IMG/VR virus record: IMGVR_UViG_3300031949_000002
Length of the DNA: 64,000 nucleotides
Strand: one strand, 5' to 3'
Source of the DNA: a virus
How positions within the stretch are numbered: position 1 is the first letter of the stretch; each line of letters begins with the position of its first letter. This document shows, in pieces, positions 2,588 through 4,178 of the stretch. The translations under genes and the position numbers were made by a program. Below the pieces are notes generated by a model, which worked only from the letters and a program-made list of their open reading frames with translations, was not told where the DNA came from and searched no databases.

Positions 2588-4178
2588 GTTGCAATGGTAG
2601 CGCCTGGCCTAAACGGAGGGCGACTAGTCAGGGTTGTGGGCTCGGACGGCATCACGCTGTTGCGATGGTAGCGCCTGGCCTAAAGAGCGGGCGACTCTTC
2701 GATGAGTGCCTCCATTTCTTGACCTGACGGGTTGCGATGGCAGCGCCTGGCCTATAGAGCAGGCGACCAGACCTTGTACGTGTTGGCTGCTCCTTGAGCG
2801 CGTTGTAATAGTAGCGCCTGACCTAGAGTGCAGGCGACAATCCTAGGAGACGCCCTTGCCCGTTGCAGTGGTTCGCGTGACCTGGAAGGAAAGCGACGGG
2901 AAGAGTTGCAGTGGCAGCGCGTGGCAAGACGACACGCGACTCGTGGCTCGCTCCTGGATCAGCAGGCCGTTAGCTTCCAGCAGTAGTGCGTGGCCTGAAG
3001 AACACGCGGCATCCGGCTCAGACAGTAGCGGCGCGCGACAAAGAGGGCGCGCGACTTCTGGGGCTGCTGTTTAGTAGAAGCCTTACAGCGGCAGCGCGTA
3101 GCCAAGATAATAGGCGACAGCCTGTCTGGCTGAATAGGCAAGCCGGGGGGAAGTTCAAGCAGCCCCAGTGCAGGGGTGATAATCCTGCGACAGCGTGATT
3201 CCGAGCAGTAAAACCAGTCCACACCTGTCCTAATTCCAGCGCAGGGGTAAACGATCCTGCGACGGACGACTCGTGGGTGGCTCGGGCGTCTGCCATGCAA
3301 TTTCAGCGCCAGCGCAGGGGAGTGACCCTACGACACGTAGACGCCGCCGTTCTCGGTCAAGCGACGGCGGGCGCAGTGCCCGCGACGGGGCCTAGTACCT
3401 TCGACATCTGTACTGGCGAACAGAGATCCAGAGAGGACGCGCAGTGCCTGCGAGGGGGCTGAGTACCTTCGACCACCAGCGGTGCTCGATGCTCTCAGGC
3501 ATGTTCCGGCGCAGTGCCAGCGAAGGAGCTTGGTGCCTTCGACAGGGGATTACGAATCGAGGACGAGGGACGCGAGGTGTGGCGCAGTGCCTGCGAAGGG
3601 GCCGAGTGCCTTCGACGGGAGGGAAGGCCGAGTAATCGGCACGGTCTTGGGGCGCAGTGCCAGCGAAGGGGCTGAGTACCTTCGACGAGACCTCGTAGAG
3701 AAGGAAGGTCACAAACCCTCCAGGCGCGGTGCCAGCGAAGAGGCTTATTATCTTCGACTAGAGGCGCGGCTCAATGACCGGAGGCTTCTCCTGGACGCAG
3801 TGCCTGTGAAGGGGCTTGGTGCCTTCGACGGCTGCATGATCATGGCGGCGTTCCATTGCCGAAGGCTAGTGCAGGAGCTTTGTGCCTGCAACAGCGTCGT
3901 ATGGCTTCGCCTGATCCGATCGGCAAATACCAGTGCGGGGGAAAGCCCGCAACACGAGACGTACCAGCACCTAACCGAAGCACTAGCGCGAAAGGATTAT
4001 TTCGCGACTGGGAAAGAAGCCTCAATAGAGTTCCTGCGCGGGGGATATAGACCCGCGACAGCAAGATGGTGAAGGAGTCGAATCGCTATGGATCCAGTAC
4101 CAGCGCGAGGGTTAAAACTCGCGACCGCGTTTGTACGACGACGGGCTCGCATGCCAGCGTAGAGGCTTAATCTACGAC
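2588..4178 (+). CRISPR. CRISPR array, 25 sequence-divergent repeats / 24 spacers
   Basis: Repeat 3' ends at 2624,2695,2767,2838,2897,2940,3010,3055,3118,3191,3263,3334,3405,3473,3543,3616,3686,3758,3829,3892,3953,4008,4059,4125,4178; mostly ~70-nt period; shared YAG/YTG + 6-bp stem + loop + AC (repeat 7 ends GC). Confidence 0.9.

Follow-up and report, generated by a model that had tools for sequence, protein, structure and literature searches.

A viral cas12m locus carries a CRISPR array of 25 different repeats that share a hairpin kept by compensatory changes

We analysed a stretch of 64,000 nucleotides (nt) from IMG/VR virus record IMGVR_UViG_3300031949_000002 (hereafter, the window). [quoted passage not shown] The data support the conclusion that selection acts on repeat structure, and this conclusion holds against shuffles that preserve the relatedness of the repeats. 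The array is probably an aged type V-M array that has had no recent spacer uptake, and whose units have been drifting as separate guide-RNA genes under scaffold selection. Covariation of the repeats, the effector family, the polarity of ageing in related arrays and the shortening of variant units were all observed directly. The array and its sub-blocks are as follows.

2588..4178, + strand: CRISPR array; 25 repeats (33-37 nt), each different, separated by 24 unique spacers; delimited by 3'-end anchoring and alignment
2588..2838, + strand: sub-block A, R1-R4; stem of the CGCCTG type, second helix GG(C/T) with (G/A)CC
2861..3118, + strand: sub-block B, R5-R9; contains the probably dead units R5 and R7
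3156..3334, + strand: sub-block C, R10-R12; stem of the CGCAGG type, second helix CC with GG from here onward
3370..3829, + strand: sub-block D, R13-R19; stem of the CGAAGG type, best-conserved block
3857..4178, + strand: sub-block E, R20-R25; six different stems, 5' repeat parts unconserved, units shortened to 51-66 nt

Positions 2300-4500 were read with the 3' ends of the repeats as anchor, which gave 25 units on the + strand. Each unit opens with ~13 nt of 5' sequence; two complementary 6-nt arms follow, set apart by a 6-10 nt loop, and AC (GC in R7) ends the unit. The 3' ends on this strand are at 2624, 2695, 2767 and 2838 (R1-R4); 2897, 2940, 3010, 3055 and 3118 (R5-R9); 3191, 3263 and 3334 (R10-R12); 3405, 3473, 3543, 3616, 3686, 3758 and 3829 (R13-R19); and 3892, 3953, 4008, 4059, 4125 and 4178 (R20-R25). 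The unit periods are, in order, 71, 72, 71, 59, 43, 70, 45 and 63 nt, ten of 68-73 nt, and then 63, 61, 55, 51, 66 and 53 nt. The 25 repeats were aligned in register over 37 columns by MAFFT (alignment A1). An initial annotation of this DNA had stated that no two repeats are identical and that the stems are mostly framed by YAG or YTG and AC. Both statements were accurate: all 25 repeats were distinct over 36-37 nt, a G precedes the stem in at least 90% of them as part of a triplet that in most cases reads YAG or YTG, and 24 repeats end in AC and R7 in GC. The only invariant alignment columns are G15, C34 and C37; G13, G35 and A36 are near-invariant. Pairwise identity within the array averaged 0.61, with a minimum of 0.43, and the loops and 5' parts are near saturation (43-45% identity). 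The near-identical direct repeats of canonical CRISPR arrays are thus lacking. The spacers, in contrast to this, are as in canonical arrays: unique, mutually unrelated and of roughly constant length (32-37 nt for 15 of the 24 inter-repeat spacers and 7-31 nt for nine). The short ones follow R4 (22 nt), R5 (7 nt), R7 (8 nt), R21 (20 nt), R22 (15 nt) and R24 (19 nt).

The 6-bp stem (columns 14-19 with 30-35) was paired in 96% of cells, and changes on both sides were found in five of its six pairs. Twenty-two versions of the stem were present: 12 perfect Watson-Crick stems accounting for 15 repeats, five versions with one G-U pair, and five repeats with one or two mismatches. At least 12 perfect stems had been reported initially; all 12 on that list were present, and they are exactly the Watson-Crick set. 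When the partner arm was slid by 1-3 columns, stem pairing dropped from 96% to 34-54%. The same slide applied jointly to the stem and the second helix described below reduced pairing from 91.6% to 34-46%. None of 500 column shuffles reached the observed number of cells paired, the number of cells changed on both sides, or the covariation score; the observed counts of pairs and of pair types were reached in 54 and 71 of 500 shuffles, respectively.

Because adjacent repeats are related, we added two stricter controls, cross-pairing of arms and shuffles confined to sub-blocks. When a 5' arm was matched with the 3' arm of another repeat, neighbours gave 88% pairing, repeats three apart gave 80% and repeats 12 apart gave 61%, vs. 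96% for a repeat's own arms. When 3' arms were shuffled within the five sub-blocks, the observed 144 of 150 pairs was reached in 1 of 20,000 shuffles. The array had a 13-fold higher density of sites consisting of the hairpin plus AC than the remainder of the window. The column shuffles, neighbour cross-pairing and within-block control, together with the published register given below, supported the initial proposal that selection acts on structure, and stem pairing stood above both types of shuffled control.

Stem changes between neighbouring repeats were mostly double and compensated (19, vs. 8 single changes). This ratio bears on the possibility that the array is an unused, decaying remnant whose stems were left by chance or by recent common descent. 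Such a remnant would fit the lack of identified targets, the lack of adaptation genes seen in the window, the truncation of R5 and R7, and the five imperfect stems. However, besides the excess of compensated changes, cas12m is intact, the tail and closing pairs are invariant while the loops are nearly randomised, and units of the distal block shorten no further than 51-66 nt, close to the size of functional CRISPR RNA (crRNA). We therefore consider a dead remnant highly improbable.

A second helix, formed by columns 9-11 with 20-22, crosses the stem and generates a pseudoknot. Pair 10-21 is G-C in R1-R9 (nine repeats) and C-G in R10-R25 (16 repeats) and is unpaired in none; pair 11-20 occurs as C-G, U-A and U-G. 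In 80 distinct repeats from ~50 other loci, collected with a model from which the second helix had been left out, pairing in the two helices reached 99% of cells, with compensatory change at each of the nine pairs. Cryo-electron microscopy of GoCas12m showed that the repeat part of ~30 nt forms a triplex and a pseudoknot (PMC11013384). In the crRNA of PmCas12m, one helix joins nucleotides -28..-26 to -17..-15 and another joins -23..-20 to -6..-3; G(-3) is contacted by the protein, and the mature form comprises ~33 nt of repeat and ~17 nt of guide, the cut lying after repeat nucleotide 2-3 (bioRxiv 10.64898/2026.03.26.714355). The helices in the window share their register with the PmCas12m and GoCas12m scaffolds, and G(-3) corresponds to near-invariant G35. 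The window repeats thus possess the stem I / stem II pseudoknot of type V-M repeats.

A model search beside other Cas12m homologues, proposed in the initial annotation, was productive. At most of the 80 loci that we fetched (loci are given L numbers below), the covariance model built from the 25 window repeats revealed an array on the downstream side of cas12m. Many of these arrays are uniform and contain as many as 24 identical repeats. The window, with its mean pairwise identity of 0.61, is the extreme case; the next clear downstream arrays (L065, L007, L066, L006) had values of 0.77-0.80, and a chain of five hairpins upstream of cas12m in L052 had a value of 0.71. The closest relatives, L096 and L099 (57-58% identity), are found in phage-like contexts and have ~12-17 mixed units with at least five stem versions each. 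In at least 14 mixed arrays among L001-L099, identical repeats adjoin cas12m and divergence rises toward the far end. Unit length was 68-79 nt in 94% of cases between identical repeats. Of units involving a variant repeat, one third were shorter than 64 nt and piled up at 48-59 nt, near the published crRNA length of 50-60 nt.

In the explanation that we favour, the array would once have grown at its cas12m end, like the arrays of relatives, and would later have aged without new uptake. Once uptake had stopped, repeats would no longer have been renewed by copying, and each unit would have drifted alone. Preserved features would be those that Cas12m needs: the 6-bp stem (crRNA -23..-18 with -8..-3) with the G that precedes it and its C-G and G-C closing pairs, two or three pseudoknot pairs (-28..-26 with -17..-15), the (C)GAC tail, and the ~17-20 nt of guide that follow this tail. 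Mutation and deletion would be free to act on loops, on the repeat's 5' end and on the 3' part of the spacer that is not used, such that old units would shrink toward a mature crRNA of ~50 nt. Most units would presumably be transcribed, cut by Cas12m, and used for DNA binding and transcription block without cleavage, a mode published for other Cas12m proteins.

The initial view that the array is functional needs narrowing, as not all units look alive. Nearly all units keep the fold; in R5 and R7 the repeat is defective and the guide is 7-8 nt long. R5 (2861-2897) has four of six stem pairs, a 7-nt spacer and the lowest covariance-model score of all units (19.7 bits). R7 (2974-3010) has the tail GC and an 8-nt spacer. 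Judged from these sequences, both units are probably dead and would be expected casualties of ageing. The coincidence of the shortest guides with a broken stem or a changed tail supports the ageing explanation.

Several observations weigh against this explanation. Mismatches are present in the stems of R1, R5, R9, R12 and R13, and pair 9-22 is unpaired in 10 of the 25 repeats, so that some of the units could be weak or dead. When repeats were folded singly, their energies were ordinary in comparison with shuffles (z -2.6 to +1.0); the hairpin is thus supported by covariation and not by thermodynamics alone. For the second helix alone, within the window, 3768 of 20,000 within-block shuffles reached the observed value, which is not significant; the case for this helix therefore comes from family-wide covariation and the published structures. 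A perfect stem was a condition for calling repeats in the relatives, and the window alone therefore measures stem upkeep without bias. Repeats within the window array are as diverse as those of the whole sampled family, with an identity of 0.61 in the array and of 0.67 between the commonest repeats from 49 other arrays; this is a large amount of divergence for drift in place to explain. Finally, no spacer target was found in the window, GenBank phages, plasmids or IMG/VR, and current use is therefore putative.

Such high diversity could also have arisen if sub-blocks had been imported by recombination from several Cas12m arrays of phages, plasmids or hosts. The diversity and much of the covariation would then have arisen between arrays, and the effector would still need to read all repeat types. 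Diversity within the array (0.61) no smaller than that between arrays (0.67) is in line with import. The block structure is clear, with a single switch of the second helix at R9/R10 (GG/CC to CC/GG), and pair 16-33 is C-G, then A-U in block D only, then C-G again, a succession that is awkward for a single line of descent. The block structure, the one helix switch and the A-U pair confined to block D speak for some mosaicism. However, a search of L001-L095 revealed no donor arrays for the sub-blocks. In these loci, blocks A and D had no outside repeat closer than their same-array neighbours, and for the other blocks the best outside and best inside matches were about equally distant. Repeats differ by 8-25% even within blocks, similarity declines smoothly with distance along the array, and the nearest relatives are likewise mixed. 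An origin of the array as a mosaic is thus unlikely.

The initial annotation had also suggested that diversification resists recombinational collapse. The longest exact match between two repeats was 20 nt and the median was 6 nt; only 5 of the 300 pairs shared at least 15 nt. The scarcity of homology agrees with the suggestion, but selection for it is not needed, because drift under constraint suffices. Divergence might nevertheless have been favoured in itself, by removing the homology used for spacer-deleting recombination in a phage unable to replace its spacers. The short shared matches, the near-saturation of loops and 5' parts, and the recurrence of the mixed state in the phage-like nearest relatives are as such selection would have it. 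The data fit neutral drift under structural constraint equally well, however; arrays that have stayed uniform, some with as many as 24 identical repeats, are also present in this family; and the polarity, fresh near cas12m and diverged far from it, is what simple ageing predicts. Selection for divergence as such is therefore improbable. A broader proposal, which we regard as possible but rather doubtful, is that a phage branch of Cas12m keeps old guides as a stable, gene-like regulatory toolkit and not as an immune memory with turnover. Its units would be selected for pseudoknot shape, divergence would protect them against recombinational loss, some guides would be directed against own or rival genes (the self-matching spacers of L054 and the match of the last window guide to cas12m of L098, both described below, are cited for this), and the arrays would be missed by identity-based finders and may be common in viral metagenomes.

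Defeat of identity-based finders had been predicted initially, and was observed with proxies for such programs. Tandem Repeats Finder reported nothing within the array. A generic repeat finder split it into a 4-copy family (D3) and a 7-copy family (D1). D3 is the same as sub-block A, whose repeats are 78-91% mutually identical in the 37-column alignment. D1 is the same as sub-block D, whose repeats are 75-91% mutually identical and have the top covariance-model scores. We also used an imitation of CRT/MinCED (exact 8-mer seed, 75% column extension, minimum repeat 23 nt) as a proxy for the real programs. It gave a repeat of at most 18 nt for the window array, with no candidate of 23 nt or more, and nothing for L096 and L099; it fully recovered the uniform arrays of L057 and L026. 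A search of Rfam over 2588-4178 revealed neither CRISPR-DR nor any other family. Two other readings of the repeated region were rejected: protein-coding repeats, because the periods are not multiples of three and the open reading frame (ORF) at 3482-4072 has no Pfam match; and duplication of whole units, because spacers were no more alike than shuffled ones.

Features on both sides of the array are as follows.

590..623, + strand: solitary 26th repeat; stem CGCAGA/TCTGCG, second helix GCC/GGC, tail CGAC
624..655, + strand: "spacer" of the solitary repeat, by sequence the cas12m 5' untranslated region including the AGGAG ribosome-binding site
656..2431, + strand: cas12m, 591 amino acids, RuvC D-E-D motif, zinc-finger TNB domain; AGGAG ribosome-binding site before the ATG
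2432..2587, + strand: presumed leader, intergenic, from cas12m to the first repeat
4242..4295, no strand assigned: 15-bp inverted repeat (I6) just past the array, followed by five T when read on the minus strand

The initial identification of the neighbouring effector as a Cas12m proved correct. The product of 656-2431 matched Cas12m of PDB entry 23vw_A over nearly its full length (E 1.3e-76), Cas12m2 of entry 8hio (E 1.6e-18), and Pfam family PF07282 above the cut-off. The cysteines are conserved, as are D304 and D577, and the alignment matches the RuvC D, E and D residues as well as the CxxC cysteines. On these sequence grounds the gene encodes a Cas12m. The array lies downstream of the effector gene on the same strand, with each repeat 5' of its guide, and more than 40 relatives have the same layout. 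A sequence test for an anti-repeat or trans-activating crRNA (tracrRNA) within 1-5200 revealed only chance-level inverted pairs of 14-22 nt. No cas1, cas2 or cas4 was present among the ~58 window ORFs scanned against Pfam or PHROGs, a scan limited to larger ORFs and to these 64 kb. In the presumed leader, the covariance model detected no repeat and no promoter was identified. The inverted repeat past the array looks like the terminator of the converging gene 4307-4600 (- strand), and possibly bounds the array transcript.

The solitary repeat, separated from the cas12m start codon by 32 nt, scored 27.2 bits (E 2e-4) with the covariance model of the 25 array repeats. About 12 of 74 relatives have a comparable hairpin upstream of cas12m, at 11-70 nt from its start, and in L099 the distance is 26 nt. 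Cas12m may regulate itself by binding its own mRNA leader at this repeat. A stand-alone repeat is found upstream of cas12a in about a third of V-A loci (PMC10120712). The two cases are alike in having a single repeat just before the effector gene (590-623 in the window). They differ in that the "spacer" in the window is the ribosome-binding site and cas12m start in sense orientation; regulation, if there is any, could thus operate on mRNA, and not by partial DNA complementarity. The 15 nt across the repeat-spacer junction of unit 10 (3184-3198) are identical to those across the junction of the solitary unit (616-630). The solitary "spacer" and spacer 10 share an identical 8-nt start, preceded by seven repeat bases; a shared start of this length was reached in 0.75% of shuffles. 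Spacers 0, 10 and 20 all open with AGCGT. Weak covariance-model matches at 27345, 50047 and 62429 had low scores and no second helix, and were judged to be chance.

The search for targets of the window spacers gave no match beyond chance in the window itself, nothing in GenBank phages, and one 42-nt match at chance level in plasmids; two spacers searched against IMG/VR had no exact match there. Spacers of relatives had no match above 15 nt in the window. A stretch of 21 nt (4175-4195), made up of the CGAC that ends R25 and the 17 nt with which the last spacer starts, was identical to a site inside the cas12m gene of L098 (the closest relative; 4508-4528). The site lies in a variable part of the protein and is preceded by a repeat-like hairpin (site plus hairpin, 4476-4528) that scored only 10 bits. 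Its flank is GAC and not a T-rich protospacer-adjacent motif; 17 nt is the published length of a working guide. The match may represent a guide against a rival, or shared ancestry. The 17-mer also matched eight IMG/VR contigs that have no common flank, about the number expected by chance.

In L054, a relative with 38% identity, the spacers at 7176-7205 and 7326-7355 matched their own contig at 30 of 30 positions. The matched sites, at 4119-4173 on opposite strands, lie in a gene for a putative endonuclease of the Uma2 family (PF05685, E 3e-19), 0.8 kb upstream of cas12m. To judge by sequence, this looks like natural self-targeting by a binding-only effector, and it shows that self-directed guides occur in the Cas12m family.

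Decay of an ordinary array usually hits the last one or two repeats and breaks them. The relatives examined here resemble arrays with such degenerate trailer-end repeats in that divergence grows away from the cas gene, the usual polarity of ageing. The window array, in contrast, is wholly diverged, and its fold is kept by compensatory changes. It shares with known type V-M systems (MmCas12m, GoCas12m, MsCas12m and PmCas12m; PMC11013384, bioRxiv 10.64898/2026.03.26.714355, and Wu et al. 2022 as far as it is reported in PMC11013384) the effector family, a downstream array on the same strand, repeats of ~36 nt and the register of the pseudoknot, and also the lack of a detected tracrRNA-like anti-repeat and, as far as the ~58 scanned ORFs show, probably of nearby adaptation genes. 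The systems described are taken to possess a single repeat sequence in each array, whereas the window has 25 different repeats with ~61% identity; its setting is huge-phage-like and some of its units are only ~51-55 nt long. The Cas12m locus of myxophage MV-1 has one consensus repeat and eight spacers (bioRxiv 10.64898/2026.09.14.751636). It resembles the window in having Cas12m with an adjacent array, the D-E-D RuvC motif and no spacer targets found, and probably, to judge by the window ORFs scanned, in lacking cas1, cas2 and cas4; it differs in its consensus repeat, as the window array has no usable consensus.

The omega-RNA arrays of sigma-factor-associated TnpB (PMC10691335) and TIGR arrays (PMC12045711) are likewise rows of separately evolving guide units that serve one RNA-guided DNA binder and do not grow by Cas1-Cas2. 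Their protein families and scaffolds are different, and the units in the window descend from CRISPR repeats. Unlike those arrays, relatives of the window array still show fresh identical repeats at the leader end. Our literature searches, made in a limited collection, revealed no description of compensatory repeat divergence within an array. Thus, the effector family, the scaffold, the binding-only mode and phage Cas12m were already known; the all-different, fold-preserving array appears to be a new form of them.

The 25 coexisting versions of the crRNA scaffold, presumably read by one protein, amount to a natural mutational map of what Cas12m needs, which by this map is the shape plus about seven fixed bases. 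They also offer a natural template for non-repetitive multi-guide arrays in Cas12m silencing or base editing. CRISPR arrays can persist unseen by finders that rely on repeat identity, and surveys of viral CRISPR may therefore undercount them. After uptake stops, array evolution, here and in relatives, appears as orderly ageing, with repeats identical near the effector and diverged and trimmed far from it, a pattern that speaks for lasting use of old guides by an effector that only binds.

A protein identical to the Cas12m of the window is on record (P0002) from a 341-kb contig. Close homologues (45-60% identity) were found only on metagenome contigs, amid small unknown ORFs, a methylase and nucleases. 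Species-representative genomes contained only distant Cas12m relatives (36% identity or less), and a single-protein query of IMG/VR revealed no relative. No capsid, portal or terminase gene was found within the window; the assignment to a phage is thus inferred from gene content, and the element is probably a huge phage. The window has 38 tRNA genes, covering most amino acids, in ~15 kb (6558-21669, - strand), with HNH and GIY-YIG homing endonuclease genes interspersed, and a transfer-messenger RNA (tmRNA) gene at 50216-50565 (- strand) with the tag AEHKLLAAA. A second, permuted tmRNA called by ARAGORN at 20322-20758 overlaps tRNA genes and is probably false.

Almost all remaining ORFs in the window had no family match. 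Those with a match include an E2 ubiquitin-conjugating-like protein (PF00179; 51911-52510, - strand), a Ser/Thr kinase with TPR repeats (39375-41147, - strand), an Asp/Arg beta-hydroxylase-like protein (19606-20361, + strand) and a large multi-domain glycosyltransferase (61454-63928, - strand). An IscB gene with RRXRR and HNH domains (16971-18272, - strand) lies in the middle of the tRNA cluster beside its guide HEARO RNA (18324-18564, - strand; Rfam RF02033, 150.7 bits), and two TnpB (OrfB_IS605) genes are present at 7275-8822 and 54693-55958 (both + strand). Cas12m, IscB and the two TnpB proteins make four RNA-guided proteins of transposon ancestry within 64 kb.

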